64,000 nucleotides of DNA, from the sequence record OQ973471.1; one strand, 5' to 3'. The notes under the pieces were generated by a model. It searched no databases and was not told the DNA's origin. It saw nothing but the letters and a program-made list of their open reading frames with translations. Made by a program: the position numbers and the translations under genes. Positions 1,028 through 24,019 of the stretch are shown here, in pieces. This DNA comes from Escherichia phage AV101. Position 1 is the first letter of the stretch. Each line of letters begins with the position of its first letter.

Positions 1028-1042
1028 GATATAGTCTCTTGG

Positions 1043-1086
1043 TTTCAAATGGGCGGGGTAATCATACCCCGCCGTGGGTTTATAGA
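1043..1086. repeat. intergenic hairpin element, copy 1 (TTCAAAT-GGCGGGG..CCCCGCC..TTATAG)
   Basis: GC stem GGCGGGG/CCCCGCC with conserved flanks; near-identical copies at 1601-1645 and 16356-16400. Confidence 0.55.
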
Positions 1087-1586
1087 GTAACAAGTGATAC
1101 GGTAAAAACCATCGTCCCGTCTGTTGCCATTTTTCTTGAAACTGGTATGACGCGAGGCTGGCAGAATATCCATTCTTTCTCCATGGACGCCAAGTCCAGC
1201 ATATCCATTTCTGATTCATCGCCTTTGTTCACAAATTTTTCTAGAGAACCATAGACATTAAGCCCCTCCGGGAGTCTGTTTCGATGTTTGTAACAAATGC
1301 GGGCAACAGCTTTGGTTCCGTACGATTTAGAAAATTTTTTGGCCACATGCTTCAGTTCACTGAAGCTAAGACAAGAGTCCCATGTCTGGAACATGTCGCC
1401 TCGTTCAAACATTATCTCTAAACGCGCAACGTCCTCTTTAGGCAACCCACGATAAAGTGTGGTCGTCTGTGGTTCGCGCAATTCTTGCACCAGATCGCGG
1501 ACGGCAGGGGAAACAGTACCGGGGCGCATGATGTGGGACTTATCATGGACGAGGTAAAATAAATCTTGAATTTGTTGATCGGTCAT
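1080..1586 (-). CDS. hypothetical protein
   Basis: ORF with internal start MTDQQIQDLFY; AGGAA RBS upstream. Confidence 0.5.
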   Translation of the reverse strand: MTDQQIQDLFYLVHDKSHIMRPGTVSPAVRDLVQELREPQTTTLYRGLPKEDVARLEIMFERGDMFQTWDSCLSFSELKHVAKKFSKSYGTKAVARICYKHRNRLPEGLNVYGSLEKFVNKGDESEMDMLDLASMEKEWIFCQPRVIPVSRKMATDGTMVFTVSLVTL

Positions 1587-1600
1587 GGTATAGTTCCTGC

Positions 1601-1645
1601 ATTTCAAATAGACGGGGTAATCATACCCCGCCCAAAGTTATAGAA
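1601..1645. repeat. intergenic hairpin element, copy 2
   Basis: Same stem GACGGGGTAATCATACCCCGCC and flanking TTCAAATAG / TTATAG as copy 1. Confidence 0.55.
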
Positions 1646-1885
1646 TTAACTGATGTGCTTCAGAAGAGCGAAGAGGATCGCGGCCTTGGCCTTTACCTTT
1701 CCCACGATGCCTGTCTCGACATCAACTTCTTCAGCAACCCACTCTTTTCCCTTCTTGCTGATGATAACGTCACGGCGCTGTGCGTAGACTTCTTTGGTCG
1801 CATACACACGGCGGAACCCTTTAGCGCGGAGCAATCCCCAATTGCGATCAATTTCTACTGAGGTTTCTACCATTTTGTTCTTCAT
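1646..1885 (-). CDS. hypothetical protein
   Basis: 79-aa ORF with ATG start and AAAGGTAAG upstream. Confidence 0.45.
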   Translation of the reverse strand: MKNKMVETSVEIDRNWGLLRAKGFRRVYATKEVYAQRRDVIISKKGKEWVAEEVDVETGIVGKVKAKAAILFALLKHIS

Positions 1886-1955
1886 GTTATAATCTTACCT
1901 TTCAACCCGGTGAACCCATCGTTCGCCAGTTATTGAATAATAGGACATTCCTTAG

Positions 1956-1988
1956 AGGAAGTAAACCCCTAAAAGTAAAAATCCCCAA
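1956..1988 (-). terminator. rho-independent terminator
   Basis: Hairpin TCCCCAAC-GTTT-GTTGGGGA followed on the minus strand by a T-run. Confidence 0.5.
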
Positions 1989-2007
1989 CGTTTGTTGGGG
2001 ACTTCTG

Positions 2008-2331
2008 TTATTTGCGCAGGGCAACCACGAGTTCAGAGAGTTCACCCATGGTCGGGTCATCGCCTTTACTACCTAGCCACCCGTCGTCGATTTCGACCTG
2101 AAACTCTTCTTCGAGGTCCATTACAATTTCGATAGCGTCCAGTTCATCACCGCCGAGGTCTTTCTTGGTACGGAGGCCAGCCAGCTTGTCCAGGGCGTCC
2201 TCGTTCTGAGATGCCACGTCGTCCAGCAATTTGCGCTTGTCATCGTCACGCCACAGATCCATATTCAGATTGTCGGTGGCGTACTGAGCCAGATGACGCA
2301 TGACTTCAACATATGTTGGTTTACTGCTCAT
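2008..2331 (-). CDS. acyl-carrier-protein-like protein with Glu in place of the phosphopantetheine-attachment Ser
   Basis: DLGGDELDAIEIVMDLEEEF aligns to the ACP motif [20 protein letters not shown]; acidic helix-II pattern retained; GGGAGAAG RBS. Confidence 0.6.
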   Translation of the reverse strand: MSSKPTYVEVMRHLAQYATDNLNMDLWRDDDKRKLLDDVASQNEDALDKLAGLRTKKDLGGDELDAIEIVMDLEEEFQVEIDDGWLGSKGDDPTMGELSELVVALRK

Positions 2332-2342
2332 GCTACTTCTCC

Positions 2343-2368
2343 CAAAGAAAGGCGGGTTGCCCCGCCCG
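2343..2368 (-). terminator. rho-independent terminator
   Basis: Hairpin GGCGGG-TTGC-CCCGCC followed by TTTCTTTGGG on the minus strand. Confidence 0.5.
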
Positions 2369-2373
2369 TTGGA

Positions 2374-4575
2374 TTAGATTTTGATTTCTTTCTCTGTCAG
2401 TTCGGCAGTGACCTTGTACTTCACGCCATCCACTTCAACTTCCATGGTGGACTCTTCCAGGTCGAGGTCGGTGAACCAGCCGTGGCCAGCAACGATACCA
2501 TACACCACTTTAGACAGTGTCTTGTTCAGGGCACGGACTTCGGTGATGGCCGCCTTGGCAGCAGCGTCGATCCAGTTTTCGATCAGCTGTTTCTGTAAGG
2601 CTTCAGGCACGGCAGTGATCATAGGAGACTTCACGAATGCTTCGTACTCTTTCAGAGCATTGGCGATGAACAAGTCACCAGCATTGAGTTTCTTGTTCTC
2701 GGCAATCTTCTTCTGTACCGCTGCGATAGACGGTAGAGATGAAGCGCCAGCGATCTTCACGTTCAGCTCACGGCTCATGTAGAAGTCGGTAGACTCTTTG
2801 GTCTCAGTCTTCGGTGAGAAGCCGTAATCGCGGATGCCGTAGGAGGACAGGAACTCGGCCGCCTCAGCGCCGTACTGTACTGCCAGGCCTTTGGCGTTAC
2901 CCTTACCAACCAGGGCGTCTCGATAGAACTTCAGCACCTTCTGCTTGCCTTTCAGGGCTTCCAGACGGACATTATCCGCAAAGAACTGAGCAGCACTGAT
3001 GTTCTTGACCATGGCGCGGTTGACCAGCGGTACGCTTTCCAGGTTCAGGACAAACACTTCCGGACCACCAAACACGTGGACGCCCATTTCGATCAGCTTT
3101 TGTACAACTTCGATATCAGCCTTGAACGGCAGAGTCTTCACGTTAATGATACCGTCTTTGACGATGGTGTAGTTGCGCCACTGGAAGGTGTCCAGTTCTT
3201 CAGGTAGACCAAACTTCTTCTGTGCGAATTCAGGCACAGCCACAGTACCGTGTTGAATTGTACGCACACTGATGTTCGGGCGCTCGGAGTTATAGACCAA
3301 ATCACTGATTGGCACAACACCCAGATCGTTGGTAGGTTCGAACGTCGGGTTCCACTCTTCGTGTTCTGCCAGCTTGAGAGCCAGGGCTTTACGCTCTTCT
3401 TTGGACTGAGCATTCGCGATCTGTTCTGCCAGCTTGTCTTCGGTGTCGTCGGTTTTCTGCACAGTACCGCGCCCGATACTCTTATAGGAGAACATCGGAT
3501 GCTTGGTAGCAACAGGCACACCAGCTTCAGCCAGGTACGTCAGCACATCAACGACGGTCGTCGCATCTTCAGCCGGAACCAGGTCATAGTCAATACCGTC
3601 AACACCGCGCAGCTGGTCGTCAACGATGGCCTGGGTCAGATCGTTCTTGATGTTGGAATAGTCCTGCTTGGTGAAGCAGTTGCTGTACTGTTTGATGAAG
3701 CGGACGTCGCCCGTCTTCTTCAGCGCAGCCCAAACCAGATCTGCGTCCATAGTGTGTACACCGTAGAACGCCAGCACGTATGCCGCCTGGATGTCCGTCA
3801 GGCTATCCATCTGGTCGATCATGTTAGGGTTTACAACCCACAGCTTGGTGACGCTCTCAGGGATGCTCACATAGCCGACCGGGTGAGAGTCATCGTCCTG
3901 TACTGCCAGCACGGTTGCCACACCGTTTTCGACGTAGATGGCATGGGTGTAGATGACTGGGACATCAACAACCACCTTCGGCACTGAAGACTTCAGTACG
4001 TTTTCCAGCTCGGTCTGATATTCGGTCTGGCCTTCGGCAAACACGTGAGTCGCGCCAGAGCGCTCGGACATCAGAGCCAGCAGTTCGCGGTTACAGTGCC
4101 AGCCGTATTCGATAAATGTAATGTTATCGAAAGCAAATGGCAGGGTCTCAGCAACCAGTAGAATTTCGTTGGTACGCCAGCAGTTGTCATACCCGTCAGT
4201 CATAAATGCCAGGTTGTTGACGTAGCCAGGTTTCTTCAGGTCACGCGCAGTATCCATCGCCAGTTTCAATGGCTCAACGAAACCAGTACAGCCGGATGGT
4301 TGCAGGAAACGGTCGATCAGTTTGTTCAGCTCGCTCAGGTCAGACGCAGCACTAACCTGGCGGCCAGCGAACACAGTACCAAAGTCGCCTTTGGAGGAGA
4401 AATACAGAACGCTCACAGTGTCTTCCGGCTTCACCAGGGATGGCAGGTTCTCCTTCAGGTGCTTGCGGACTTCAGGGAGCGCACGGTACATAGAGCCGGA
4501 AATGTCTACAACGATTACATGGTTGGACGGAGCAGCAGTCGCAACCGCATTCTTAAATTCTAATGATTCAATCAT
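2374..4575 (-). CDS. von Willebrand factor A (vWA) domain protein, about 733 aa
   Basis: N-terminal MIDAS-type motif VIVVDISGSMY (DxSxS) with downstream T/D positions; start taken at MIESLEF with AAGAGAA upstream; about 530 aa of unassigned C-terminal sequence. Confidence 0.6.
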   Translation of the reverse strand: MIESLEFKNAVATAAPSNHVIVVDISGSMYRALPEVRKHLKENLPSLVKPEDTVSVLYFSSKGDFGTVFAGRQVSAASDLSELNKLIDRFLQPSGCTGFVEPLKLAMDTARDLKKPGYVNNLAFMTDGYDNCWRTNEILLVAETLPFAFDNITFIEYGWHCNRELLALMSERSGATHVFAEGQTEYQTELENVLKSSVPKVVVDVPVIYTHAIYVENGVATVLAVQDDDSHPVGYVSIPESVTKLWVVNPNMIDQMDSLTDIQAAYVLAFYGVHTMDADLVWAALKKTGDVRFIKQYSNCFTKQDYSNIKNDLTQAIVDDQLRGVDGIDYDLVPAEDATTVVDVLTYLAEAGVPVATKHPMFSYKSIGRGTVQKTDDTEDKLAEQIANAQSKEERKALALKLAEHEEWNPTFEPTNDLGVVPISDLVYNSERPNISVRTIQHGTVAVPEFAQKKFGLPEELDTFQWRNYTIVKDGIINVKTLPFKADIEVVQKLIEMGVHVFGGPEVFVLNLESVPLVNRAMVKNISAAQFFADNVRLEALKGKQKVLKFYRDALVGKGNAKGLAVQYGAEAAEFLSSYGIRDYGFSPKTETKESTDFYMSRELNVKIAGASSLPSIAAVQKKIAENKKLNAGDLFIANALKEYEAFVKSPMITAVPEALQKQLIENWIDAAAKAAITEVRALNKTLSKVVYGIVAGHGWFTDLDLEESTMEVEVDGVKYKVTAELTEKEIKI

Positions 4576-4783
4576 TGTTCTCTTCGCCTTGTGCGTAAGG
4601 GTTAAGTTCAGACTCATCAGCGGCTTCGATGCGCGTCTTTACAGAGTCCAGCATATTGTTGATAAACTCACGAGACTGCTCCAGCTGAGCCAAGAGCACA
4701 TCCTTTGGAGCATAGTTCTGAATGCAAGCCGGAATACTTTCAGACGTCGCCTTCAGGTCGGTAAAACATTCTTTCAGTATCAT
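4568..4783 (-). CDS. hypothetical protein
   Basis: 71-aa ORF with ATG start, overlapping the vWA gene start by a few nt. Confidence 0.4.
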   Translation of the reverse strand: MILKECFTDLKATSESIPACIQNYAPKDVLLAQLEQSREFINNMLDSVKTRIEAADESELNPYAQGEENND

Positions 4784-4852
4784 TTGATCTCACTTAACAG
4801 AGACGACGCCCTGTTGGGATTTAATAGCGGTCTTCACAGACATCAGGTTTCC

Positions 4853-4878
4853 CTCAAAACAGGGGAGTCTCCTCCCCT
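4853..4878 (-). terminator. rho-independent terminator downstream of the NAD+ operon
   Basis: Hairpin GGGGAG-GAGA-CTCCCC then TGTTTT on the minus strand. Confidence 0.5.
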
Positions 4879-4885
4879 TCGGTTA

Positions 4886-6550
4886 TCAGATTTGTGAGGC
4901 CAGTTCTGTCACCAGAGGAGCGGCACGGACACGCGCATCTTCCAGCGTTTGGGTGTTGAAGAACTCGCCATCACGATACACCAGCTGGTGCTGGTTGTCG
5001 GCGTCTTGCACCTGATCAAAGGTGATACCGTCAACCAACACTAGTTTACCCTGAGAGTCTTTAATGACTTTAAGGAAACCACGCGCAGACTTTTTAGTCC
5101 CGCCTTTATCGGTCTTCGGCTCTTTGAAGATCTCACGGAATTCACCGTTCACTTTACCAGCCGTGGCTTTCACTGCTGTGCCAGTACTGTCACGGGTGTT
5201 CATCTGGTAGGTGTAGGAACCGATACCGAACACCACGTTGATGGAAGCGAAGTTCCGGTCAGCCAGACGGCTAAAGATCTGGTCTTCACGCGACAGGGTG
5301 ATAGAATCACCGTAGATCAGGCCGATGTGCTCATCCAACAGGAAGTGCCCAGTTTCAGTCTGGGTGCCACCAAAGATCTCCCACAGGCGCTGGATAGAGC
5401 CGACCGCTTCTGAACGGCTGATGATATTACGGTCATCTGCCATCAGAGAGTTGATCGTGCCTTCGCCTGTGATCAGGTGATAGGTGTTCGTCTCTTCGAT
5501 GTGGATGACTTCGGTGCTGCTGGACACGCCGCTGATGTTCAGCGTAGCGCGGTCTTTGAACCCCTCGATACGGTAGCCGCCGACGATGTGCACAGGGTCA
5601 CCAGAGTCAGGGCGGATCACGACTTTACCATTGCGCGCCATGATAATGTCTTTCAGGCGAGGCAGATAGTCGTCGATGACCTGCCAGTAATCCCACGCAT
5701 CAGACACGATGCTGACGATGCCATCAGGATACACGTCCTGCACCAGGCGGCGGAAGGTTTCGAATTCGCCATCCTTCGTGCCCATACACATCACGGCGTG
5801 TTCGGTAGCCGCAACAGAACCAGCAACGACATAATCTTCGTCGATGTCTGCGCCATAATACTCTTCTACGAAGTCCAGGGCAGGGTTGGTGTCGGTGCCT
5901 TTGAAGAACACCAGATGACCGGAACCGGAAGACGCGGCGTCATGCCACCCGCTCATACCACGGAAGGAGAAGTCGTGGCCTTGGTAGTCGATGAACCAAT
6001 GGTCCGGTGATACTCCCGTAGCGAGGGCAGCTTTCACCATCAGTGCCTTGTAATGCAGAGCGATGGTGGCGTTCGTCATCGGCTTCCAGATCTCAGAGCT
6101 GAACACAGTCTCCAGATAGTTGGTCAGCCAGTAGAACTCCGGCAGGGTATTGAACATCACATACACCGGAACACCATACGGACACATGGTGCCTTCAGGC
6201 AGCGCACGGACTTCGATAGGCAGGTAGCCGAGGTCATGCAGGGCTTCAATATGCTCTGTGCCGACGCGGCCTGGACCCAGGACTTTGTTCATGCGACGGG
6301 CATACTTCTTCAGCACCTTGGTCTTCGGGCGCTGGAAGAATGCTTCGTCAAACAGTTCGTGGAACCAGGTCATGAAGCCCTGGATACCCCAGACCACCAC
6401 GCCGTTCTTCGGCAGGTGAGAGTTGAAAAGTTTGTTAGAGCGCGGAGTTCCGTTGGAGAACACCAGCTCACTGCCTTCAGGGAACTGATAGATGTGCCCC
6501 GATTTGTAGAAGTCGATCGCATGGATTGGGTCTAAGTGGCGCATGCTCAT
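4886..6550 (-). CDS. nicotinamide phosphoribosyltransferase family protein (Nampt/NadV-like; possibly Namat of an NAD+ reconstitution pathway)
   Basis: 554-aa protein with strong Nampt-family resemblance across its length (MSMRHLDPIHAIDFYKSGHIYQFPEG... GHDFSFRGMSGWHDAASSGSGHLVFFKGTDT); 4-nt overlap with the upstream PRS-like gene. Confidence 0.85.
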   Translation of the reverse strand: MSMRHLDPIHAIDFYKSGHIYQFPEGSELVFSNGTPRSNKLFNSHLPKNGVVVWGIQGFMTWFHELFDEAFFQRPKTKVLKKYARRMNKVLGPGRVGTEHIEALHDLGYLPIEVRALPEGTMCPYGVPVYVMFNTLPEFYWLTNYLETVFSSEIWKPMTNATIALHYKALMVKAALATGVSPDHWFIDYQGHDFSFRGMSGWHDAASSGSGHLVFFKGTDTNPALDFVEEYYGADIDEDYVVAGSVAATEHAVMCMGTKDGEFETFRRLVQDVYPDGIVSIVSDAWDYWQVIDDYLPRLKDIIMARNGKVVIRPDSGDPVHIVGGYRIEGFKDRATLNISGVSSSTEVIHIEETNTYHLITGEGTINSLMADDRNIISRSEAVGSIQRLWEIFGGTQTETGHFLLDEHIGLIYGDSITLSREDQIFSRLADRNFASINVVFGIGSYTYQMNTRDSTGTAVKATAGKVNGEFREIFKEPKTDKGGTKKSARGFLKVIKDSQGKLVLVDGITFDQVQDADNQHQLVYRDGEFFNTQTLEDARVRAAPLVTELASQI

Positions 6551-7401
6551 TTTACACGTCCTGTATTTTCAGTTTTGAAAGGAAGCCCGTCGGCGGTGAT
6601 GTTCTCCCACCAGACAGTGTCGGCATACACAGCATCATAGATCCCGTCGAAAACAGAGAGACCTTTGCTGAAGATGCCATGGGTAACGAAGAGCGTCATG
6701 TGCTTAGGCTTGTGCTTCTGAAGCTCTTTGCCTAACTCAACGAACGTGCGCCCACCGTCGCAGATATCATCGACCACCACCAGATAGCGGTCTTTGATCA
6801 GTTCAGGGTTTGTAACACTCACCCCAATGATCTCACCAGTCTTGGTATCGCGGTTCTTATGGCCGTAGACAACAGGAACACCGTCCAACGATAGGCTGAG
6901 GGCTTCGGTCTTCTTAGTCGCGCCGCCGTCAGGAGCTACCAACACAGCGTTGTTCCCACGGATGAACCAGCCCAGATACTGACGCACGATGTAATCTTGC
7001 GGGACAACATGAACGTTGTTGATCAGAGAAGACACAACATGGCTGTGAGGATCTTTGATTACCACGCGGTCAAAGTTCATGCTATTGATGAATTCAGCCG
7101 CCCACTTCACAGACAGAGGCTCACCGAAGTCACAATGGCGGTCCTGGCGAGCATACGGGAAGTAAGGGATATACGCATGGAATGTCGTCAGACGGTCCAC
7201 GTTACTCAGACCACGAACGGCGTTTACCAGAAGCGCCAGCTCAATGAAGTCGGCTGATGATTTGATGTGAGCATCAATCACCACGTTCTGAACGTGGCCG
7301 ATAGGGATACCAGACTTTTGGATCTTGATATGTTCCTCACCACCTGGGAAGGTGAAGTGTTTGTAGAACACATCTTGGTCGTTCAATTTCAAACGAAACA
7401 T
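6547..7401 (-). CDS. ribose-phosphate pyrophosphokinase family protein (PRPP-synthetase-like; possibly ADP-ribose pyrophosphokinase Adps)
   Basis: PRPP-binding loop YLVVVDDICDGGRTF and PRS-like N-terminal half; GAGG RBS; co-oriented and overlapping with the Nampt-like gene. Confidence 0.8.
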   Translation of the reverse strand: MFRLKLNDQDVFYKHFTFPGGEEHIKIQKSGIPIGHVQNVVIDAHIKSSADFIELALLVNAVRGLSNVDRLTTFHAYIPYFPYARQDRHCDFGEPLSVKWAAEFINSMNFDRVVIKDPHSHVVSSLINNVHVVPQDYIVRQYLGWFIRGNNAVLVAPDGGATKKTEALSLSLDGVPVVYGHKNRDTKTGEIIGVSVTNPELIKDRYLVVVDDICDGGRTFVELGKELQKHKPKHMTLFVTHGIFSKGLSVFDGIYDAVYADTVWWENITADGLPFKTENTGRVK

Positions 7402-7460
7402 AATGCAGCCTCATGGTGTATTGTACAGCCGTATTATACTGTGACGCACAAATTGAAACG
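7402..7460 (-). promoter_or_regulatory. candidate sigma70-like promoter for the NAD+ operon
   Basis: On the minus strand, TTTCAA (weak -35), about 16 nt spacer, then TATAAT, about 35 nt upstream of the PRS-like ATG. Confidence 0.3.
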
Positions 7461-7509
7461 CCCAGCAAATTCACTGGACGTTATTGATATTGAAAAGGTT
7501 TTGACAAAC

Positions 7510-7743
7510 TCAGGATTTGGAGGAAGCACCCTTCCATGTCTGACGTTTGTAGTGGGAAGCCATGGCCATCGACCCGGCGTATTGCGTTTCACCCCTGACT
7601 ACCACAGCCACAACCAGCTTATGTCGCAACAGGAAGTCCAGACCTGACTTAGACGGGATATCGCCAATGCTCAGTGGACCACGATTGTACAGGGCATACA
7701 TGGTGTCAAGCGCCGCCCCGGTAAAAATAATCTCTTTAGACAT
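7510..7743 (-). CDS. hypothetical protein
   Basis: Internal ATG start MSKEIIFTGAAL; 77 aa. Confidence 0.4.
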   Translation of the reverse strand: MSKEIIFTGAALDTMYALYNRGPLSIGDIPSKSGLDFLLRHKLVVAVVVRGETQYAGSMAMASHYKRQTWKGASSKS

Positions 7744-7750
7744 GGTGGTC

Positions 7751-8056
7751 TCACTTAAACGAGTCAACGGTGGATGTAAGAATTTCGGGGGTGGGTTTGG
7801 CGTCTTGTGGTTCACGGAAACCCACCTTTGCGATGCGGTCCAAGACATTGTACACTTCGCGCGGAAGGGTGTCTACGACCGTGTCCGACATGAACACCAC
7901 GTCTTCTTGGATGGCGTTGTATTCAGCCAGTTTAGCCAGTTCTGATTCTACCAGGGACTTCAGCTTTTGCAATGGGTCGTTGCAATAGTTGAGACGGTTG
8001 CAGTTAGTGAGCGCCTGAGTTAGATTCTCAAACGCTTCTTGTATTTCCTTTGACAT
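7751..8056 (-). CDS. hypothetical protein
   Basis: Internal ATG start MSKEIQEAFENL; 101 aa, helical and acidic. Confidence 0.45.
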   Translation of the reverse strand: MSKEIQEAFENLTQALTNCNRLNYCNDPLQKLKSLVESELAKLAEYNAIQEDVVFMSDTVVDTLPREVYNVLDRIAKVGFREPQDAKPTPEILTSTVDSFK

Positions 8057-8438
8057 TGATATGTGCCTCGTATTGTTGACAGACAACAACTACTTTACGG
8101 CACATGTCGATATCGAACAAGCCAATATGACACTCACGCTTCTTTATCCCCAGCTTATGCGCCAGCCAACTGTAAGCGTCGCTCCTGCTCCTCTCTCCGC
8201 TTTTCCACAATGGGTCAAACGATCTATGGGCTTCCTGCTTAGCAGCACGGAGAGCGGCATTCGCCATCCTTCCCAGAGGTTGTCTGCCGTCGCCATGGGC
8301 ATGGCAACCGACACGGGCATCACATGGAGTGCACACCCAGAACTTCAGATTGCGGAGGTCAGGGCGATGAGGGTAGAGAACATCACCACCGACGAATTCG
8401 GCTGGGAGGCCACAGTAATCACATATAACAGGTTTCAT
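8028..8438 (-). CDS. cysteine-rich (zinc-ribbon-like) protein
   Basis: CDYCG...CTPCDARVGCHAH cysteine/histidine clusters; listed ORF start is GTG, internal ATG (MKPVICDYCG) preferred. Confidence 0.45.
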   Translation of the reverse strand: MKPVICDYCGLPAEFVGGDVLYPHRPDLRNLKFWVCTPCDARVGCHAHGDGRQPLGRMANAALRAAKQEAHRSFDPLWKSGERSRSDAYSWLAHKLGIKKRECHIGLFDIDMCRKVVVVCQQYEAHINVKGNTRSV

Positions 8439-8498
8439 ATTCTTTGTCCAAAAGAAACCCCGCACATGGCGGGGTTGCTCAGGCTGAGGTCAGACAGA

Positions 8499-8870
8499 TT
8501 ATTTCAGGAGTGCTTCCAGTTCTTCAACAGATTTGCTTTCCAGCTCTTGCTGTTTCTTACGCTGGATCAGCTCCAGGATAACCTGGTTGTTCGCCTTACG
8601 CTCTGCCGCTTCTCTGCTGTCGTCACGTTCTTTCAGCTTAACGCCGATGATGTGCTTGACAACGTCGAAGCGCAGCTGCAGTTCGGAGTCAACGTTGCTT
8701 TTGGTACCAATGAAATCTTCTTCATCGGTTTCTGCTGCTTTCACCTGACGGCTCAGACCTTTCGCCATTTCGTTCAGGGCAGTCAGGCTCAGGTCCCAGA
8801 CCTGCTCAATAGACAGCAGACCTTTGTTAGACTCGAAGCGCAGTTTCATACGGGTTGCTTTATCAAACAT
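8499..8870 (-). CDS. hypothetical protein
   Basis: 123-aa ORF, ATG start, GAGGA RBS 9 nt upstream. Confidence 0.5.
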   Translation of the reverse strand: MFDKATRMKLRFESNKGLLSIEQVWDLSLTALNEMAKGLSRQVKAAETDEEDFIGTKSNVDSELQLRFDVVKHIIGVKLKERDDSREAAERKANNQVILELIQRKKQQELESKSVEELEALLK

Positions 8871-8914
8871 TTTACTATCCTCAATGATGAATGGGTTACA
8901 ATTTCAAATCAGGT

Positions 8915-10933
8915 TTAGAACACAACTTTCACAGTGCGGTTGAACGAACCGCTCACCTTCACGAACACGTGGTTGCGTTGGGTGGTAGAGAAGCCCAGAC
9001 CGGACAGCTGCTCAGTGCTTGGCTGTACTTTAATCTTACCACCTAACATTTCAAAAACCTTGCGGTGTTTATCAAGTTCCGGCTTCAGATATTCGTTATA
9101 GAAACCACGGGTGCCGACAGGGTTAGCACAACCTTCCAGGATGAAGAACACGTGCTTGTTGCCAGTCTGCTCGCCGTCCCAATGGTTTGGTGAGTTCAGA
9201 ACCAGCTGTACCTTCTGGAAGACGGAGGTCTTGATGCCCCAGATTTCCTGAGAGCGAGCGTCGTCTTTCAGGGTAGAACGGATGTCTACCACTTGTCCAG
9301 CGCGGACATCAATCACAACAGCCAGAGTGCGATCTTTGTGCTTCAGGCCAGGATGCGAAAAACGCTTGGTCTGGCCTTTGTATTCAACTTCGATTTCGAA
9401 GCCCATATCACAGGTTTCACGCTGGCTGAAGTTAGTGACATAGAACTCGTACAGACCATCACGCAGCTTGCGTTCATCGCTGAAGAAGATGTTCTCCACC
9501 GGACGGCGGTTTGGATCAATGCCGTCCATACCGTTCATGTCGATGTCTAGAGTTGCGCCAGTTGTCGAACGACGGTTGTGATAATACACGTGGTTGTGAA
9601 GAGGATCGTTCAGGCTCAGATCCAGGTCGTCGTTGTTATGCCAAGCCAGTGACACACGGAGGAAGCTGTCGACATTGCCGCCTGCGGTCTTCACGCGCTC
9701 TTTGATGGAGTCGGCCACTTCGCCATTGTACGACCAGCTGAAGCCGTTGTTCCACTTGAACAGGTTAGGAGCGCCTGCGGTGGCCGGAGCGATCAGGGAC
9801 ATCAGGTTGCCAATGTGAGAGTTTTCGACCAGCACTTCCAGGGAATGCGCCTTTGGCAACACGTTGGTCAGGAAGTCGTCGATCGTGATCTCTTCAACCT
9901 TGTCCAGGGACTTGGTCGGAGTCTTCACTTCAGACGCCAGCTGAGCAAACGGGTCCATCTTCTTCTGAGCTGCTAGGTCGGCGAACAGAACGTTGTTGAT
10001 GGTCAGATCGTCATACACGGCATAACGGCGACCCAGTGAATCAGTCAGACCCAGCGCTTCGACTTCTTTCTGCGCGTTTTCAATCATCGACTTCGTGACC
10101 AGCGCGGTTGGGCGCTTGTAGTTCGTCGGAGCGACTTTGGCTTCAAAGGACTTCACGGCGGTTTCCAGATCCCGACCTTCATTGAGGTCTACCAGCAGAG
10201 AGCCAATCACGGTATTACGAATGCCGTGAGGGGTATGACCGTTTGCACGGTAGCCAGTGCGCCAAGCCCACAGAGCGCGTTTCTCTTCTGCAGTTTGTTC
10301 GTACAGGGTCTTGTTCACCACGAACGCCTGCACTGCCGCTTTGTGCTCTTCACCGCGATACAGAGAATTCTGGTCAATCAATTCAAGAACGATTTCAGCC
10401 GATTCCAGAGACAGTTCACGCAGGCCGCGCTCAAACACTTCAATCGCCTGGCGGATTTCACCCTTCTTAGAAGCGATGGTATCTGCCCGCAGAACATAGC
10501 TGCTCAGCAGGTCGGTGTGGAAGTGGTTGTAGGTGCGGACAATACCGTCTTTCATTTCGTGATTCGACCCAACACCAACTTTCTTGGTGTCGTTGAAGTA
10601 CACATCGACGATTGCGTGCTGCTTAACATATGCTGACAGCGCCGCAGCGACAACGTCGTATTCGTTACCCAGCTGAATGTTATCCCAGATAGAGATCACG
10701 TTCAGGTCGGAGTCGATGGTGACCACACCGCCGATATTACGGATGAATTGTTTACAGCAGGTACAGTCGTGTTCGGTACGCTCACGATAAAGCGGGTTAG
10801 TGCCAGCAGGGAAAGAAGACAGATACAGATCCCACAGAGCATCTTTATCGATGTTGGTCATGAACAGACCAGTTGCTGACATGGCCAGCACATTATTGTT
10901 TACGGCTACTGCGAAGGGCTTAAATTCTGACAT
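8915..10933 (-). CDS. large uncharacterised protein (672 aa)
   Basis: Long ORF with AGGAAG RBS; N-terminal HDCTCC cysteine cluster; no family recognised by eye. Confidence 0.6.
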   Translation of the reverse strand: MSEFKPFAVAVNNNVLAMSATGLFMTNIDKDALWDLYLSSFPAGTNPLYRERTEHDCTCCKQFIRNIGGVVTIDSDLNVISIWDNIQLGNEYDVVAAALSAYVKQHAIVDVYFNDTKKVGVGSNHEMKDGIVRTYNHFHTDLLSSYVLRADTIASKKGEIRQAIEVFERGLRELSLESAEIVLELIDQNSLYRGEEHKAAVQAFVVNKTLYEQTAEEKRALWAWRTGYRANGHTPHGIRNTVIGSLLVDLNEGRDLETAVKSFEAKVAPTNYKRPTALVTKSMIENAQKEVEALGLTDSLGRRYAVYDDLTINNVLFADLAAQKKMDPFAQLASEVKTPTKSLDKVEEITIDDFLTNVLPKAHSLEVLVENSHIGNLMSLIAPATAGAPNLFKWNNGFSWSYNGEVADSIKERVKTAGGNVDSFLRVSLAWHNNDDLDLSLNDPLHNHVYYHNRRSTTGATLDIDMNGMDGIDPNRRPVENIFFSDERKLRDGLYEFYVTNFSQRETCDMGFEIEVEYKGQTKRFSHPGLKHKDRTLAVVIDVRAGQVVDIRSTLKDDARSQEIWGIKTSVFQKVQLVLNSPNHWDGEQTGNKHVFFILEGCANPVGTRGFYNEYLKPELDKHRKVFEMLGGKIKVQPSTEQLSGLGFSTTQRNHVFVKVSGSFNRTVKVVF

Positions 10934-11052
10934 GATGTAGTCTTCCTGTTTCAGTTCAAATGTGCGCCCCGTTTGCCAGGGCGCTTCGTTTAAGTGAGGT
11001 CAATAATACGTTGAAAAAAGTTATTGAAGAATGAAGTAAAGGGAATCTTTAT

Positions 11053-11277
11053 TCAGACGATCTTACCACCGTCACAAGGCCGAGTATCACCGGAGTTGTA
11101 TGCCAGCATCCCCTGCATCAACAAACGTCTTGGCCCAGAAACTGATTTCTGTTTCCTCAACGTACTGCAGAACCGAGTAGTGCCTGGGTAAGGAGTGTAC
11201 ACGAGACGACCTTGCATACGAGCTTCCAGTAGGAATTCATCTGTGGCTTTGCGTAACTTGAATAATTTCCAGCTCAT
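11053..11277 (-). CDS. hypothetical protein (doubtful)
   Basis: 74-aa ORF with ATGA overlap to the HNH gene stop; no other support. Confidence 0.25.
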   Translation of the reverse strand: MSWKLFKLRKATDEFLLEARMQGRLVYTPYPGTTRFCSTLRKQKSVSGPRRLLMQGMLAYNSGDTRPCDGGKIV

Positions 11278-12203
11278 TTTTCACCCTTGTATCTTTTTAA
11301 CCATTTGACGCATTTTAATGGTTCCCACCCTTTATTGAAACGTTCGATAATGCTGTTTGTCGCATTAAAAGCCTTCAAATCCTTTGTTCCGTACACATGC
11401 ATGAGGGCTTCCGCTCTTTTCATCGTCTTCAAAGATTGCATAAGCAAATCAGCTTTTGACCAATACACATCATTTTCGGGGTTCCATTTCGCTTTCTCCC
11501 AAGGCAACTTCACTAACATACCTTTCTGGGCGTTTTCTTTCTGTTTGGCTCGTTGTTCCGGTGTGAAAGAATTGGTTAAGTCCTTCCCATAATTGGGATT
11601 GAGTTTCCCGAGTTTTGCTTGTCTAGAACGCTCCGAAAATTGCTTCAAATCTGTATTGGCGCGACGCCGCTCTAAAACCTGCCTTTTATATTCAGGGTCA
11701 GAAGCCATTCTTTCATGGATTTTCATCAATCCTTTGGTAATTTTCTTGACTTGCTCTGGAGTTCTCTTATATCCATATTGGGGGTTATTCTTTCCTCTCC
11801 TTCCGTACATTGGGTTGTCTTTACCCACAAACCGAGAAACCCCTTTCCATTGTAAAGATAGTTGTTCGCTGAATTTAATTCTGAAACTTTCATATAAATG
11901 AGAATTAAACCGAATCCCCGATTTATTTCTTCTTCCCCCCTTTCTCATAGCCACCACAGCATACACCATTCTCGTGTTTGGGAAAGCCAATGCCAAGCAC
12001 AAATGCACAAGATAATGTTGCCTGCCTGTTAATCGAACCAAATTGTTCTTATCTTTAAAATATTCAGGGAACATGCTCTTGGGAAGGATGTGGTGTAATT
12101 CAGTGTAGTCACCATCAGAATATTTGAAAGATTGAACCATCCTCAAATACTTCTTGATGAAATGCGGTTTACCGCCTTTAGAAACCAACAATTCATAAAA
12201 CAT
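11274..12203 (-). CDS. HNH homing endonuclease with NUMOD3-like repeats
   Basis: HNH core ELHHILPKSMFPEY...NLVRLTGRQHYLVH; repeated GKDNPMYG / GKNNPQYG / KLNPNYGKD motifs; AT-rich codon usage unlike neighbours. Confidence 0.8.
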   Translation of the reverse strand: MFYELLVSKGGKPHFIKKYLRMVQSFKYSDGDYTELHHILPKSMFPEYFKDKNNLVRLTGRQHYLVHLCLALAFPNTRMVYAVVAMRKGGRRNKSGIRFNSHLYESFRIKFSEQLSLQWKGVSRFVGKDNPMYGRRGKNNPQYGYKRTPEQVKKITKGLMKIHERMASDPEYKRQVLERRRANTDLKQFSERSRQAKLGKLNPNYGKDLTNSFTPEQRAKQKENAQKGMLVKLPWEKAKWNPENDVYWSKADLLMQSLKTMKRAEALMHVYGTKDLKAFNATNSIIERFNKGWEPLKCVKWLKRYKGEK

Positions 12204-12234
12204 AACAGGAACTCCAAAAATGAAAGTTCCTGTT
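12204..12234 (-). promoter_or_regulatory. inverted repeat spanning the RBS of the HNH endonuclease gene
   Basis: AACAGGAAC-(13 nt)-GTTCCTGTT lies immediately 5' of the ATG and includes the GGAG Shine-Dalgarno. Confidence 0.45.
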
Positions 12235-12264
12235 ATAATATACTTTGTTAACTCACAAAGTAAG

Positions 12265-13464
12265 TTACTTTTTAAATAAATTTAGCAGGTTTTTAGAACC
12301 AGATGTCGTCGCTTTAGGTTGTCCTTCCCCATCGTAACCAACCTTCCCGCGCGGTTTTTTGCCTTGGTTGACGGCTTCTACACAACGGGTATATTTCGAC
12401 AATTCACAAAAGTGGTTCTCTAATTGTTGAACATTCATACACTGATCCCAAGGCTCTTCGGCCGACCAAAATTCTTCCCTGTTATACCCAAGAGGACCAT
12501 AAACTGCGTCCTGATTATCCCGTAGCCAGAAGATGCATTCTTCGTGGGTCATACCGTCTTTGTTCAGGAACATCAGGTCGATGCCTGCGCGACAGCCTGG
12601 TCCAGCAACCGTGAAGTGGTTCTCGCTGAAAGGATATCCAGGAATGTACGTGAAATCAACCCAGATCTGATAGGCCAGGAATGGACCAAGCCCTTCGATG
12701 TCGTCATACATGCGCTGGTATACTTCCAGAGGAGTACCAAGGCGCAGCAAGTCATGGAAATAGTTTGGATACTTGTTGACGAATGCCTTCAGAGAACGGA
12801 TAACACGCATCGGCATGTATGGTTCCCATCCCTCGATGGTATATTCACCAGGATTCTCTTCGACCAGCTTTTTGGCGACCTTGTAGTCCATCTCGTCCAC
12901 AATACCCTGGCCAACGCGATACACTTTCACCATCATCCCACCGAAGCACTGCTCCTTGTGGTTGACAACCATCTCAGGGAAAGCCAGGCATTGCTTCAGG
13001 CCGCCCGTGTTGAAGGCATTGGTGAATACCTTACCACCGTCGGCCTCGAACTTCTGAAGTCGTTCGCGGGTTGCATCGAGGTTGATCTCGGCGAATTCTT
13101 TGATCGTCATCGCGCCGCCGATAGCCTGGATTGGATCCCAGAGGTTGAACATGCGGAACATCACGCAGTTGAACATCTTGTCGGCCATACCCAGAGCATC
13201 GTTGTTGACGATGTTGTTGATCAGGTTGAGAGACTGTCTGTCGTGCTCTCTCCGGACGTTACAGAATTTAACCTGGCGTAGTATGGGATTATCAGTCCAA
13301 GGAGCAGGAAGGCGCTGGACGTCCTTCTTGACGTGGATCTGATAACGATCGCGCATCCATTCGTAAGACAGGCTGGTATGGGTCGGACTGAGAACCGGTT
13401 TGGCCGACTTTATCTTTTCTTCACGGACACCGCAGTACGGGACGTCCAGGGCTTTATCTTTCAT
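12265..13464 (-). CDS. hypothetical protein (399 aa)
   Basis: ORF with AAGAGGA RBS; sits where T4 has DNA polymerase gene 43 relative to regA. Confidence 0.6.
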   Translation of the reverse strand: MKDKALDVPYCGVREEKIKSAKPVLSPTHTSLSYEWMRDRYQIHVKKDVQRLPAPWTDNPILRQVKFCNVRREHDRQSLNLINNIVNNDALGMADKMFNCVMFRMFNLWDPIQAIGGAMTIKEFAEINLDATRERLQKFEADGGKVFTNAFNTGGLKQCLAFPEMVVNHKEQCFGGMMVKVYRVGQGIVDEMDYKVAKKLVEENPGEYTIEGWEPYMPMRVIRSLKAFVNKYPNYFHDLLRLGTPLEVYQRMYDDIEGLGPFLAYQIWVDFTYIPGYPFSENHFTVAGPGCRAGIDLMFLNKDGMTHEECIFWLRDNQDAVYGPLGYNREEFWSAEEPWDQCMNVQQLENHFCELSKYTRCVEAVNQGKKPRGKVGYDGEGQPKATTSGSKNLLNLFKK

Positions 13465-13482
13465 GGTATCCTCTTAGAATAC

Positions 13483-13512
13483 GAAAACAGAGGCCATTAT
13501 AGCCTCTGTTGT
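13483..13512 (-). terminator. rho-independent terminator
   Basis: Hairpin ACAGAGGC-TATAATG-GCCTCTGT followed by TTTTCGTATT on the minus strand. Confidence 0.5.
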
Positions 13513-13532
13513 TTAGTGAATAACCGTATATC

Positions 13533-14405
13533 TTAATCGATACGGGTCAGTTGGGTGATAGATGATTGCACTGGGCTGGCCACATAGATACGGACGTTGG
13601 CTTTCCATTCACCCCAGATCAACGGCAGAGTTGGGAAGTTGTCTTCATTGAAAACAAACACGGGAATGTAGCTCTCGACTGTTTCGCCAGAGAACGCCTG
13701 AAAGCCCATCTTGGTGTATCCCATGATCTCGTCAATAAAATCGAACGGAGCGAAGGCAACACCAGCGTGTTCGTTAGAACCGAGCTGGCCTGGAATGGCC
13801 GTGCCCGTCAGAATGATTTCGGTGATCTGGCGCTTAGGCTCGGTGGTCAACATATCAGAGAAGTCAGGCTCTTTGAAGGTTGCCATGTTCTTCAGGAACT
13901 TGCCAGCCGGGTACTCTTTGCCGTCGACAGTGATGGTGTCCACCACTTTGATGCACGCCTGAGGGAATTCCCCTTCGATGCGTAGACTTTCGCGTGGGAA
14001 TCCTTTGTTATAGTAATACTCCAGCGCTGGAACAACTTCACCTTCATTGCGAACGAACTTGCTCATGTTAGAGGCATACACGCGTTGTAGGCATTCGTCA
14101 CCGTCGAAACCAGCAATATGAGCCACACCGTCGTTGACAGTGGTGATGTCGCCCTGGGCATCCATGATCTGGCGCATAATGTCTTTGATGTCGACAACAA
14201 CGGGTTCTTTCAGGACTCGCGGAGATGCAGTGAACTCAATTTTCACCTCGTGGTCGAAATACACCGCTTCCAGCAGTTCACGGGTTTCTTCCAGCACCAG
14301 TTTCGCCTGATTGCGGATCTTACCAAAGTCAGGCGATGTGACGTCGCCCTTTGCATTACCGAAAGCCAGATTCAGATTCACGTTCTTAGAAAATGTAGTT
14401 GTCAT
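13533..14405 (-). CDS. hypothetical protein (290 aa), possible MazG-like NTP pyrophosphohydrolase N-terminal region
   Basis: LVLEETRELLEAVYF resembles the EExxE..EA helix of MazG/HisE-type enzymes; weak, by eye only. Confidence 0.45.
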   Translation of the reverse strand: MTTTFSKNVNLNLAFGNAKGDVTSPDFGKIRNQAKLVLEETRELLEAVYFDHEVKIEFTASPRVLKEPVVVDIKDIMRQIMDAQGDITTVNDGVAHIAGFDGDECLQRVYASNMSKFVRNEGEVVPALEYYYNKGFPRESLRIEGEFPQACIKVVDTITVDGKEYPAGKFLKNMATFKEPDFSDMLTTEPKRQITEIILTGTAIPGQLGSNEHAGVAFAPFDFIDEIMGYTKMGFQAFSGETVESYIPVFVFNEDNFPTLPLIWGEWKANVRIYVASPVQSSITQLTRID

Positions 14406-14421
14406 GATTTAGCGACTCCAG

Positions 14422-14817
14422 TTATTCGCTTTTTGCCTTCGTAGGCCGGATGATGTATTTTGGAACCAGCTTCCATTCAGGAACCTGATCGTGTTTAACC
14501 ACTTTAATGCGAGACATATCGGCTGCTTCGGTGACCTGCTCAGGATGAATGACCTTCACCATGTTCCACTGCTCCAGCAGCTTGATGATTCGGTTCATCC
14601 TCAGGACATCTTCGCGGTTAAATCCGTTGTAATGCCCGTCCAGCATAAATAGATGCTTAAAGTGGACGATATAATACTTGCCGCACTTATGAAGAATATG
14701 GCAAGTTTGATACAGAGTATTCGGCTCTTGGCGCGTGTTTACCCCAATTCGACTCAGTGTTTCCTTGATCCCCAGGAATATACCTGGCCGATCTTGGTTC
14801 AATTGAACTTCAACCAT
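14422..14817 (-). CDS. regA: translational repressor RegA
   Basis: LYQTCHILHKCGKYYIVHFKHL and EWKLVPKYIIRP match T4 RegA (LYQSCHILQKKGLYYIVHFKEM, HEWKLVPKYTIG); GGAG RBS; sits beside the clamp-loader genes as in T4. Confidence 0.8.
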   Translation of the reverse strand: MVEVQLNQDRPGIFLGIKETLSRIGVNTRQEPNTLYQTCHILHKCGKYYIVHFKHLFMLDGHYNGFNREDVLRMNRIIKLLEQWNMVKVIHPEQVTEAADMSRIKVVKHDQVPEWKLVPKYIIRPTKAKSE

Positions 14818-14915
14818 ACAATCAACGATGCTGGCCTCATCGTTGACTGCTGAAATATTCAATATGTCTAGCGTATTACGCGCCATGACTCATTCCCCTT
14901 TTACAATAGTTTGAA

Positions 14916-15338
14916 CTACTTAGCCTTGCGCGGTTTCGCTTTGGCGTTCAGCTCAGTGCGTCTCATCTTCTCGCGTATCTCGGCCAGGACTTCCTTCGGC
15001 AAGAAACGGACGTACTCCGATGCCTTCTCCATGCTGATGTAGAAGTACTCTGAGAGTAACTTCACGTCAGGATCAATCGGACCTTTCTTAGACCATTTGT
15101 CGTAGCGTTTCCGAGCCGGAATGGTGTAAAAGGCATATGACCATTGCATCCATGGAGTGATAGCATGTAGCTTATTCATCTGTTGCGCAGCCACTAGAGT
15201 GTCTTTGCTCTGAGCTAAACCACGCCGCGTCATAAACGGGTCGAATCCTTTCAACACTTCTGGGTCATCAGACCGCAAAAGGTTTTCTTTGCTGCTGTTC
15301 AGAGCAGACAGGTAATCGAACAATCCAAGGGCGGCCAT
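14916..15338 (-). CDS. clamp loader small subunit (T4 gp62-like)
   Basis: ARKRYDKWSKK resembles the T4 gp62 GKRYGKWAK segment; immediately downstream of the gp44-like gene; internal ATG start MAALGLF with GGAAGTGA RBS. Confidence 0.55.
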   Translation of the reverse strand: MAALGLFDYLSALNSSKENLLRSDDPEVLKGFDPFMTRRGLAQSKDTLVAAQQMNKLHAITPWMQWSYAFYTIPARKRYDKWSKKGPIDPDVKLLSEYFYISMEKASEYVRFLPKEVLAEIREKMRRTELNAKAKPRKAK

Positions 15339-15342
15339 AATA

Positions 15343-16332
15343 TCACTTCCACTTGATGTTGAGCATGACATTGGTCAGGAAAAACACAGCATGCAGCCAG
15401 ACATCGCCGACTTGACGGTGTTCAATCTGAGACTGACCACATACGCATACTAGATCAGGGATAGACTCATTCTGAACCAACATTTGCTTCTCTTTATCCT
15501 GTGGTACACAGAACTGGAAGAAGCGGGAATAGAAGTCTTCAGTGATATAGTTCTGGTTGTCGGTCACCCACTGCTTCATCCCAGCCCAGTCATTATCCTT
15601 CAACATATTCACCAACATGCCCATATCGGCCGATTTTAACACAGCCAGTGCACGTTCGTCGATCTTGCCGTAAGTGGTGACGTTATCCTGTAGAACACCC
15701 ATGATGCGGCGGTTATCAGGGAAATGGCGCTTGACAATAGCAGCCAACACAGGAGGGTCATACTCAACACCTTCGCAGCGAAGGATTTCAGCACAGCGGC
15801 GCATGAACTGAAGTTTGACCTCATCAGCCTCGGTCTCATTCCAGATAAAGTCGATTTCACGGCAACGAGAGCGCAGAGGTTCGTTCACACGTTGCTTGGC
15901 GTTGGTGGTCAAGATGAATGAACAGTTCTTGGAGACCTTCTCCACAATACCCTTCAGCGACTCCTGTGCCGCCATAGACAGACGCTCTACTTCGTCGAGG
16001 ATAACGACTTTGCGGCCACCGAATACGCTCACACCAGTAGAGTACTGAATCACGCGGTCACGGATAACGTCGATGCTGTTGTCCAGGGATGCGTTGATCA
16101 TCAGTGGTTGCTTACAACCGATTTCATTACACACGGCCAGGGCGGAGGTAGTCTTGCCAGTACCAGGCTGAGGAGAGTAGAACAGCATAGACGGGATGTT
16201 GCCGTTGCCGCTGGTGATGTAGCCATGGATTTTAGCGCGGACGTCTTGAGGGATGATAATCTCGTCCAGGTTGTCAGGGCGGTACTTGTTTTCCCATGCG
16301 TACTGGTCGGAAACGATAGTGATATTAGACAT
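15343..16332 (-). CDS. clamp loader large subunit (T4 gp44-like AAA+ ATPase)
   Basis: Walker A PQPGTGKTT, clamp-loader-type N-terminus ENKYRPDNLDEIIIPQ, Walker B ILDEVERL. Confidence 0.85.
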   Translation of the reverse strand: MSNITIVSDQYAWENKYRPDNLDEIIIPQDVRAKIHGYITSGNGNIPSMLFYSPQPGTGKTTSALAVCNEIGCKQPLMINASLDNSIDVIRDRVIQYSTGVSVFGGRKVVILDEVERLSMAAQESLKGIVEKVSKNCSFILTTNAKQRVNEPLRSRCREIDFIWNETEADEVKLQFMRRCAEILRCEGVEYDPPVLAAIVKRHFPDNRRIMGVLQDNVTTYGKIDERALAVLKSADMGMLVNMLKDNDWAGMKQWVTDNQNYITEDFYSRFFQFCVPQDKEKQMLVQNESIPDLVCVCGQSQIEHRQVGDVWLHAVFFLTNVMLNIKWK

Positions 16333-16355
16333 TTTCAGCCTCGTGTAGAAGAATC

Positions 16356-16400
16356 ATTTCAAATAGGCGGGGAACGCCCCCGCCCACACATTATAGCATC
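16356..16400. repeat. intergenic hairpin element, copy 3
   Basis: TTTCAAATAG-GCGGGGAACGCCCCCGCC-...TTATAG between the gp45-like and gp44-like genes. Confidence 0.5.
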
Positions 16401-16414
16401 AGGCTGGAGATTGA

Positions 16415-23918: not shown

Positions 23919-24019
23919 GATATATTTCCTTCATTTCAGAGTCAGTGTTGTGCTGCTTATGGAATGAAGTATACGGGGTTTATTGAAGAAGTAAACCCCG
24001 TATTCAACTTTTATTGAAT

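Follow-up and report, generated by a model that had tools for sequence, protein, structure and literature searches.

Three copies of a composite hairpin junction in the ViI-like Escherichia phage AV101 and their resemblance to the promoter-early stem-loops of T4-type phages

INTRODUCTION

In the T4-type phages RB49/phi1, PST/T4 and nt-1/KVP40, composite elements known as promoter-early stem-loops (PeSLs), which join a promoter, a stem-loop and the Shine–Dalgarno (SD) sequence and ATG of a gene, mediate insertions and deletions (indels) (Arbiol et al., 2010, PMC2839356; Comeau et al., 2014, PMC4122927). The stem-loop has been described in five places with respect to the promoter, including between the boxes, over the -10 box and downstream of it, and promoter activity, terminator activity and mini-circle formation have been shown experimentally (PMC2839356; PMC4122927). 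Here we describe three copies (A, B and C) of a composite hairpin element in Escherichia phage AV101 (sequence record OQ973471.1; the 64,000 nt stretch analysed is referred to as the window), one of them directly before the gene for the clamp loader gp44. The reading towards which we lean, if only slightly, is that the copies are family-specific composite gene junctions, PeSL-like and portable, in which a leaky terminator and RNA-protecting hairpin is interleaved with a promoter and fused to a conserved leader.

Two other bodies of work bear on such a locus. Middle promoters of T4 combine a MotA box centred at -30 with a sigma-70 -10 box (PMC2988021), and the genome paper of the Ackermannviridae phage CBA120 reports that informatics did not reveal early promoters and that homologues of MotA, AsiA, Alt and ModA are absent (PMC3184105). 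In the paper on phage phiSboM-AG3 (Ag3), hairpins orthologous to those described here are listed as rho-independent terminators (Torf165, Torf138 and probably Torf139; Table S2, PMC3121705). The orthologue of copy C is Torf165 in that list, and the annotation of phage May likewise marks the C site as a terminator.

RESULTS

Sequence, setting and number of the copies

The genes around all three copies lie on the minus strand, and read along the coding strand each copy has the same order: a stop codon, CTATAA, 5–6 nt, a GC-rich stem of 7–11 bp, (C/T)ATTTGAAA, an SD sequence and an ATG. Copy A, CTATAAacccacGGCGGGGtatgattaCCCCGCCcATTTGAAAcc...ATG(1027), lies between the stop codon of a 168-aa cassette gene (TAA at 1080–1082, within CTATAA) and the ATG at 1027; copy B, CTATAActttgGGCGGGGtatgattaCCCCGtCtATTTGAAAtg...ATG(1586), between the gene at 1646–1885 and the ATG of the cassette gene at 1586; and copy C, tgCTATAATgtgtgGGCGGGGgcgttCCCCGCCtATTTGAAAtg...ATG(16332, gp44), between the gp45 stop codon and the gp44 ATG. 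As in PeSLs, the 3' end of each copy is formed by the SD sequence (AGAG, AGGA and GAGG in A, B and C, respectively) and start codon of the downstream gene. A preliminary description of the window had reported three hairpin copies with conserved stem and flanks before three genes including gp44, and this holds at A, B and C; the distance it gave, 20–35 nt upstream of the genes, agrees with the 24 (A), 24 (B) and 33 nt (C) that we measured from stem end to start codon. Coordinates are collected in Table 1.

The perfect-stem pattern GGCGGGG-N(3-12)-CCCCGCC has three matches in the window (1052–1073, 16366–16384 and 41031–41047) as against none in 100 shuffles. Copy B (1602–1643) falls outside this pattern, as its 3' arm, CCCCGTC, gives one G.U pair. 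The hairpin at 41031–41047, GGCGGGG-ttg-CCCCGCC, is perfect and lies 19 nt before an ATG, and carries no U-tract, no TTTGAA and neither flank. The pattern CTATAA-N(4-9)-G[GC]CGGGG is confined in the window to A, B and C, and a covariance model of the whole composite, built from eight copies and run with filters off, found exactly these three (E 2e-15 to 8e-12), the next match having an E value of 0.18. In 150 kb of the related Escherichia phage YX22, the part of that genome used throughout, the model found two copies. A dispersed repeat family was ruled out by these numbers, three composites in the window and two in YX22. BLAST with copy B gave full-length matches in Ackermannviridae only, those elsewhere being chance matches of 25 nt, and Rfam 15 gave no match at the gathering threshold across the window and none at E<=1 around the copies.

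Hairpin structure and conservation

Each copy folds into a stable stem-loop beside or overlapping the promoter-like boxes described below, again as in PeSLs. The antisense folds of B (-11.6 kcal/mol) and C (-15.8 kcal/mol) are weaker than the sense folds (Table 1) because G.U pairs turn into A.C mismatches. Orthologues of the copies were found in MK-13, Dickeya phage PP35, CBA120 and Klebsiella phage May, and at the gp45–gp44 junction a hairpin is also present in Serratia phage KNP4 and Erwinia phage Bue1, which brings the genera to six. The stems at this junction differ across genera, being GGCGGGG/CCCCGCC, TGCAGGGGC/GCCCCTGCA, GGGCGG/CCGCCC or GCGGGG/CCCCGC. In an alignment of 19 matches every one of the 136 cells is paired (11 of them as G.U or U.G), both sides have changed in four of the nine pairs, and slid registers pair in only 46–63% of cells; the covariation score is 0.262, compared with 0.147 in shuffles, and is reached by none of 500 shuffles. 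This alignment was fitted to the covariance model, which favours structure, and a separate stem-by-stem table agrees with it. The hairpin is very probably a real structure of the sense-strand RNA.

Pairing of the flanks to lengthen the stem was considered and rejected; folding of the window does not predict it, and folding of CBA120 and May does so only weakly. A search of IMG/VR with gp45 added only 11 loci, the distant ones among them (26% identity) having no hairpin at the junction. Taken together, the orthologous sites in up to six Ackermannviridae genera, the compensatory stem changes and the invariant TTTGA(A) bear out the preliminary description in treating the copies as one specific composite and not as three unrelated terminators. 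It had allowed that the element might exist only as these three copies with no conservation in relatives; relatives do conserve it, yet the full composite is limited to 2–3 copies per genome.

A two-box motif and its place in the copies

Intergenic DNA between co-directional genes of YX22 contains TATAAT 14 times on the sense strand and twice on the antisense strand (2.8 expected), and CTATAA 11 times and once, respectively. Most of the intergenic TATAAT sites are preceded by TCAAT, and when every hexamer matching a -10 box at five or more of six positions was counted, the spacing from TCAAT to the -10 showed a single sharp peak at 14 nt (15 cases over a background of about one), with no comparable peak for the scrambled boxes used as control. 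Spacing peaks at 13–15 nt also occur in the window, May, KNP4 and Bue1, so that the two-box motif is seen in five or six genera of the family; its -10 usually lies 34–42 nt before the ATG. At about half of the two-box sites there is an overlapping GC-rich hairpin whose loop contains or adjoins the -10, and YX22 has about ten sites of this kind besides the copies. Examples are CGGGG-TATAAT-TACCCCG, GGGGGA-TATAAT-TCCCCC and AACAGAGGC-TATAATG-GCCTCTGTT (window 13486–13510), and a related junction, 'site 2', is given in Table 1. Window sites of the form (T)TCAAT(AA)-N14-TATAAT are at 24979–25003, 16390–16414, 11003–11027 and 7433–7456 on the minus strand and at 61291–61315 and 62936–62960 on the plus strand; YX22 has about 15 further sites. 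The motif is strongly biased to the sense strand and to intergenic DNA. In the literature searched we found no mention of the TTCAATAA motif and no transcriptomics for Ackermannviridae. The abstract of the Viunalikevirus genus paper reportedly mentions 'conserved regulatory sequences', so an earlier description of the motif is possible.

Copy C contains an exact match, TCAAT-N14-TGCTATAAT, with the -10 ending 5 nt before the core stem. In five of the six genera the C site has its -10-like hexamer 3–5 nt ahead of the stem; in the sixth, Bue1, TCTAT-N13-TATAAT places the hexamer in the hairpin loop. The corresponding sequences are TCTAT-N15-TATGAT in copy A and TCTAT-N14-TATGAT in copy B, with 39 nt from -10 to ATG in both, within the range of the class, and the B site of May has the canonical TCAATAA-N13-TATGAT. 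The preliminary description had treated CTATAA as one homologous flank; this does not hold, as it is the -10 in copy C and in A and B takes the place of the upstream box, and judging from the motif statistics two different boxes appear to have been conflated. We predict that the copies probably have promoter function.

Two other promoter assignments were tried and rejected. CTATAA is not a T4-type late promoter, TATAAATA, since the copies have TATAAACC, TATAACTT and TATAATGT; TATAAATA is itself rare in YX22, with three copies and none intergenic. Nor does TTGAAA serve as a -35, an ATG following within 13–25 nt and no -10 being present at 16–18 nt. A scan with the sigma-70 consensus called none of A, B and C, and its total for the window equalled the shuffle expectation.

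The downstream flank

All 17 sequences compared have an unchanged TTTGA, which begins 0–2 nt past the maximal stem. The TTTGAAA of the copies is best read in two overlapping ways, as a short U-tract belonging to the hairpin and as the first part of a recurrent leader, TTTGAAAtgAAGGAAcTATATCATG, which is also found with no adjacent hairpin before the genes with ATGs at 24714 and 23924. The downstream flank given in the preliminary description, CTATTTGAAA, is present in B and C and absent from A, which has CCATTTGAAA. A hairpin of the intrinsic-terminator kind is present, but the 8 nt past the GC stem hold only 3–4 U, where a typical intrinsic terminator has at least five. A rough score of the d'Aubenton-Carafa type is -21 (A), -22 (B) and 0 (C), compared with +8 to +24 for the window's three clearest terminators, and a simple terminator scan called none of the copies. 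By this rough classical score the copies are weak terminators at best.

A short upstream open reading frame (ORF) starting at the ATG of TTTGAAATG in copy C was rejected, its frame differing between the window and MK-13 and its ATG being absent from CBA120 and May. Another leader, that of the major capsid gene (window about 27930–27993, minus strand), is nearly identical in four genera while the flanking coding sequence diverges; its conserved part includes a hairpin, AGCCCTC-gaaa-GGGGGCT, then TGATTTTGAAC and some 50 nt beyond it.

The cassette gene and recombination between copies

Copies A and B are near-identical direct repeats that flank the cassette gene, and at this locus denV, the ADP-ribosylase gene or no cassette alternate across genera. 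LHE287, YX22 and May have no cassette gene, and PP35 and SFP10 have denV in its place; there denV follows copy B and its frame ends within TTTGA/leader. May has a single copy at the locus, and LHE287 and YX22 have one chimeric copy, B-specific on its left (...ccccgTcT) and A-specific on its right (ccaagagactatatcATGAAAAAG), with the crossover inside ATTTGAAA. CBA120 has the order B, ADP-ribosylase gene, A, and then a different downstream gene. Among the 40 records of a spread sample, copy B was followed by a gene annotated as denV/endonuclease V in about 11 and as ADP-ribosylase in four; in most others the annotation was hypothetical. Thus indels and replacements between close relatives have their junctions inside the repeats, as with PeSLs, and the copies, being near-identical direct repeats, very likely serve as recombination substrates.

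A second promoter-hairpin repeat, TTTCAATAA-CGGGGTGAGAGG-TATTAT-TGCCCCG, occurs once in the window (24965–25005, minus strand), and in YX22 (about 98080–98400) two copies of it flank an extra ORF of about 62 aa; this is another indel mediated by direct repeats. The hairpin at window 23971–24003 (minus strand), ATACGGGGTTTA-cttcttcaa-TAAACCCCGTAT, encloses TTTAC/TTCAATAA-like sequence with TATACT directly after it, and the sequence downstream, tacttcattccataagc, recurs at another YX22 junction (about 61000). It looks like one more repeat family of junction elements.

Table 1. Features at and around copies A, B and C (all on the minus strand)
Feature	Position	Strand	Details
Copy A, whole composite	1041-1086	-	covariance model 67 bits, E 3e-15
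Copy A hairpin	1052-1073	-	GGCGGGGTA-tgat-TACCCCGCC, 9 bp; -19.2 kcal/mol, z -4.8
Copy A TCTAT, upstream-box position	1082-1086	-	15 nt before TATGAT; overlaps CTATAA (1080-1085)
Copy A TATGAT, -10-like, in hairpin loop	1061-1066	-	
Copy A ATTTGAAA after stem	1043-1050	-	short U-tract and leader start
Copy B, whole composite	1600-1644	-	covariance model 67.6 bits, E 2e-15
Copy B hairpin	1609-1634	-	11 bp including G.U pairs; -18.8 kcal/mol, z -4.3
Copy B TCTAT box	1640-1644	-	14 nt upstream of TATGAT
Copy B TATGAT, -10-like, in hairpin loop	1620-1625	-	
Copy B ATTTGAAA after stem	1602-1609	-	
Copy C, whole composite including promoter-like motif	16355-16414	-	covariance model 54 bits, E 8.5e-12
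Copy C hairpin	16363-16387	-	core GGCGGGG-gcgtt-CCCCGCC at 16366-16384; -19.3 kcal/mol, z -3.3
Copy C two-box motif, exact match	16390-16414	-	TCAAT (16410-16414), 14 nt, TGC-TATAAT (-10 at 16390-16395)
Copy C ATTTGAAA after stem	16357-16364	-	
Related junction 'site 2'	10964-11027	-	TCAAT-N14-TATTAT (11003-11027), hairpin GCGCCCTG-gcaaa-CGGGGCGC (10964-10984), acATTTGAAC, SD, ATG 10933
Cassette gene, 168 aa, between copies B and A	1080-1586	-	PHROG 832 'RNA polymerase ADP-ribosylase', E 1.4e-14
Gene downstream of copy A	653-1027	-	ATG at 1027
Gene upstream of copy B	1646-1885	-	copy B lies between this gene and the ATG at 1586
gp45 gene	16415-17083	-	stop codon 16415-16417
gp44 gene (clamp loader)	15343-16332	-	ATG at 16332
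RegA homologue	14422-14886	-	Pfam Translat_reg, E 2e-34

The phage and other differences from its relatives

The first 16.5 kb of the window are closest to Escherichia phages YX22 and LHE287 (about 97% identity; both Ackermannviridae) and next to Shigella phages MK-13 and Ag3 of the genus Agtrevirus (92–93% identity); on this similarity the window is assigned to an Agtrevirus-like (ViI-like) phage of the Ackermannviridae. The minus-strand genes of the region also include that for gp62. At the gp44 start codon itself (window 16332), YX22 carries a 218-aa ORF (YX22 39062–39718) that is inserted exactly at this codon and re-uses the gp44 ribosome-binding site, with a weak match to a GIY-YIG (SegE-like) domain. 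The gp44 match is in two pieces in PH4, CAU_YEP3 and S115, as in YX22, and in LIMEstone1 the insert is reduced to a remnant of its 3' end. Just upstream of the promoter-like motif and hairpin of site 2, the window has an insertion of about 1.27 kb relative to YX22 (11057–12328), which contains ORFs at 11053–11277 and 11274–12203; the latter (309 aa, with a NUMOD3 motif) is probably a homing endonuclease. Elsewhere, a 109-aa ORF in the window (23590–23918) is absent from YX22, which has 33 nt instead (96993–97026), and the tail-spike region (46004–57987) is strongly divergent, with 68–93% identity to YX22 and rearranged matches, as expected of host-range modules.

DISCUSSION

The composite-junction model builds on the RNA-level hairpin and its conservation, the two-box motif with its spacing and the recombination junction, and from these we infer promoter activity, start sites and partial termination. 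In this model the GC-rich hairpin of the sense RNA, followed by UUUGAA, would act as a leaky intrinsic terminator and protect the 3' end of the upstream message; our prediction, held with fair confidence, is that termination at the copies is partial only. Interleaved with the hairpin would be a promoter made up of a TCAAT-type box, about 14 nt and a TATAAT-type -10, and the conserved leader, starting with UUUGAA, would carry the SD sequence of the next gene. In A and B the putative -10, TATGAT, lies in the loop and transcripts would start at the 3' foot of the stem; new transcripts would therefore escape the hairpin. In C the putative -10, CTATAAT, lies just upstream of the stem, and new gp44 transcripts would therefore begin with a 5' hairpin. 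Stem-loops at the 5' terminus, of the ompA type, are known to stabilize mRNA, and the predicted start in copy C would in like manner make the hairpin the very first part of the gp44 message. The near-identical direct repeats would, finally, allow early-gene cassettes to be inserted, deleted and swapped.

The PeSL cassette of T4-type phages seems to be the closest known analogue of the copies. Both are intergenic composites of a two-box promoter or promoter-like motif, a GC-rich stem-loop and the SD sequence and ATG of the next gene; in both the position of the stem-loop varies, being over the -10 in A and B and downstream of it in C; and the copies, too, are conserved direct repeats beside small accessory genes, with the indel and replacement junctions of relatives inside them. 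The copies differ in belonging to Ackermannviridae and not to T4-type phages sensu stricto, in being known here from sequence alone, and in their upstream box, TCAAT at 14 nt, where PeSLs have a sigma-70 -35 at 17 nt. They differ also in number, the 2–3 full composites per genome standing against dozens of PeSLs in RB49/phi1, a difference that weighs against the composite-junction model itself.

Several further points weigh against that model. A and B have one mismatch in each box (TCTAT, TATGAT), and TCTAT alone gives no spacing peak. The 14 nt from TCAAT to the -10 are unlike the sigma-70 -35/-10 spacing of about 17 nt, and CBA120 has no reported MotA/AsiA homologue to read the box. A and B are recombining paralogous direct repeats, and the similarity of their flanks therefore does not count as separate evidence for a function. 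A transcript from copy C would open with a strong hairpin, which could terminate that same transcript. Finally, the literature searched contains no transcript 5' or 3' ends for any Ackermannviridae phage.

An alternative is that the hairpins are plain rho-independent terminators or attenuators at which part of upstream transcription stops, lowering for example gp44/62 relative to gp45, and that their flanks are alike by shared ancestry only. The Ag3 list and the May annotation favour this, as do the paralogy of A and B and the UUUGA that follows the stem at 0–2 nt in all 16 sequences compared for this, and the copies resemble such terminators in having a stable GC-rich hairpin, U residues directly after it and a position downstream of a stop codon. 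They are unlike them in having 3–4 U before GAA, scores that are sub-threshold or at best borderline, the start of a same-strand gene 24–33 nt on and promoter-like boxes interleaved with the hairpin. Other points against this alternative are that efficient termination would silence the downstream genes unless a promoter were present, that the flanks coincide with a genome-wide two-box motif, with both spacing and ATG distance fitting, and that the -10-like hexamer at the C site lies just upstream of the stem, or in the loop in Bue1. We consider this explanation rather improbable; if the copies were merely leaky terminators, the finding would be an ordinary one. Of the roles suggested in the preliminary description, attenuator is still plausible, and processing site and protein-binding site have no specific support.

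A processing or stability element, at which a host endonuclease such as RNase E would cut the single-stranded AUUUGAAA, leaving the upstream message with a protective 3' hairpin and freeing the downstream cistron, would account for a TTTGA that is invariant in all copies and genera and so better conserved than the sequence of the stem. This A/U-rich, single-stranded motif adjoins a stable hairpin, and AUUUG occurs at the classical RNase E sites in RNA I and 9S RNA. T4 messages, too, are processed by RNase E at conserved sites (PMC3014915), and about one-third of the YX22 intergenic hairpins between co-directional genes have no U-tract and are therefore unlikely to be terminators, so that such hairpins cannot all be terminators. 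The motif is, however, also explained as U-tract plus leader start, the leader also occurs where there is no hairpin, and Rfam has no match, and we think processing unlikely as the function. Less likely still is an operator, in which the RegA homologue, or some other early protein, would bind the hairpin and/or UUUGAAAUG and repress the translation of the downstream genes, gp44 among them. The phage does encode a RegA homologue (Table 1), and T4 gene 44 is a RegA target, RegA sites being A/U-rich (PMC3014915). T4 RegA sites are, however, unstructured and overlap the AUG or lie immediately 5' of it (PMC3014915), whereas the conserved motif of the copies ends 15–25 nt upstream of the AUG and abuts a strong hairpin, and its distance to the SD sequence varies from about 5 nt in A and B to 17 nt in C.

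It is possible to go further than the composite-junction model and to suppose that the copies are units of an uncharacterized, Ackermannviridae-wide promoter class, TTCAATAA - about 12 bp - TATAAT, with the geometry of T4 MotA-dependent middle promoters and not of a sigma-70 -35, a proposal that we regard as speculative and on balance doubtful. The likeness to T4 middle promoters lies in an 8-bp box (TTCAATAA) about 12 bp upstream of a TATAAT-type -10, with TGn before the -10 at some sites; the box differs from TGCTT, and the family has no reported MotA/AsiA homologue (PMC3184105). If true, the proposal would imply a phage factor that redirects host RNA polymerase, and promoter, hairpin and leader would have evolved as one portable expression cassette for shuffling early genes.

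ViI-like (Ackermannviridae) phages are widely used in biocontrol and phage therapy, yet the regulation of their early genes is essentially unknown. Read as junction cassettes, the copies would explain why hairpins annotated as terminators stand directly before essential genes such as gp44, and would offer a testable grammar for the early transcription units of these phages. They also mark where early accessory genes (those for the putative RNA polymerase ADP-ribosylase and denV) are exchanged, which may be useful both in engineering these phages and in reading the mosaicism of their genomes.

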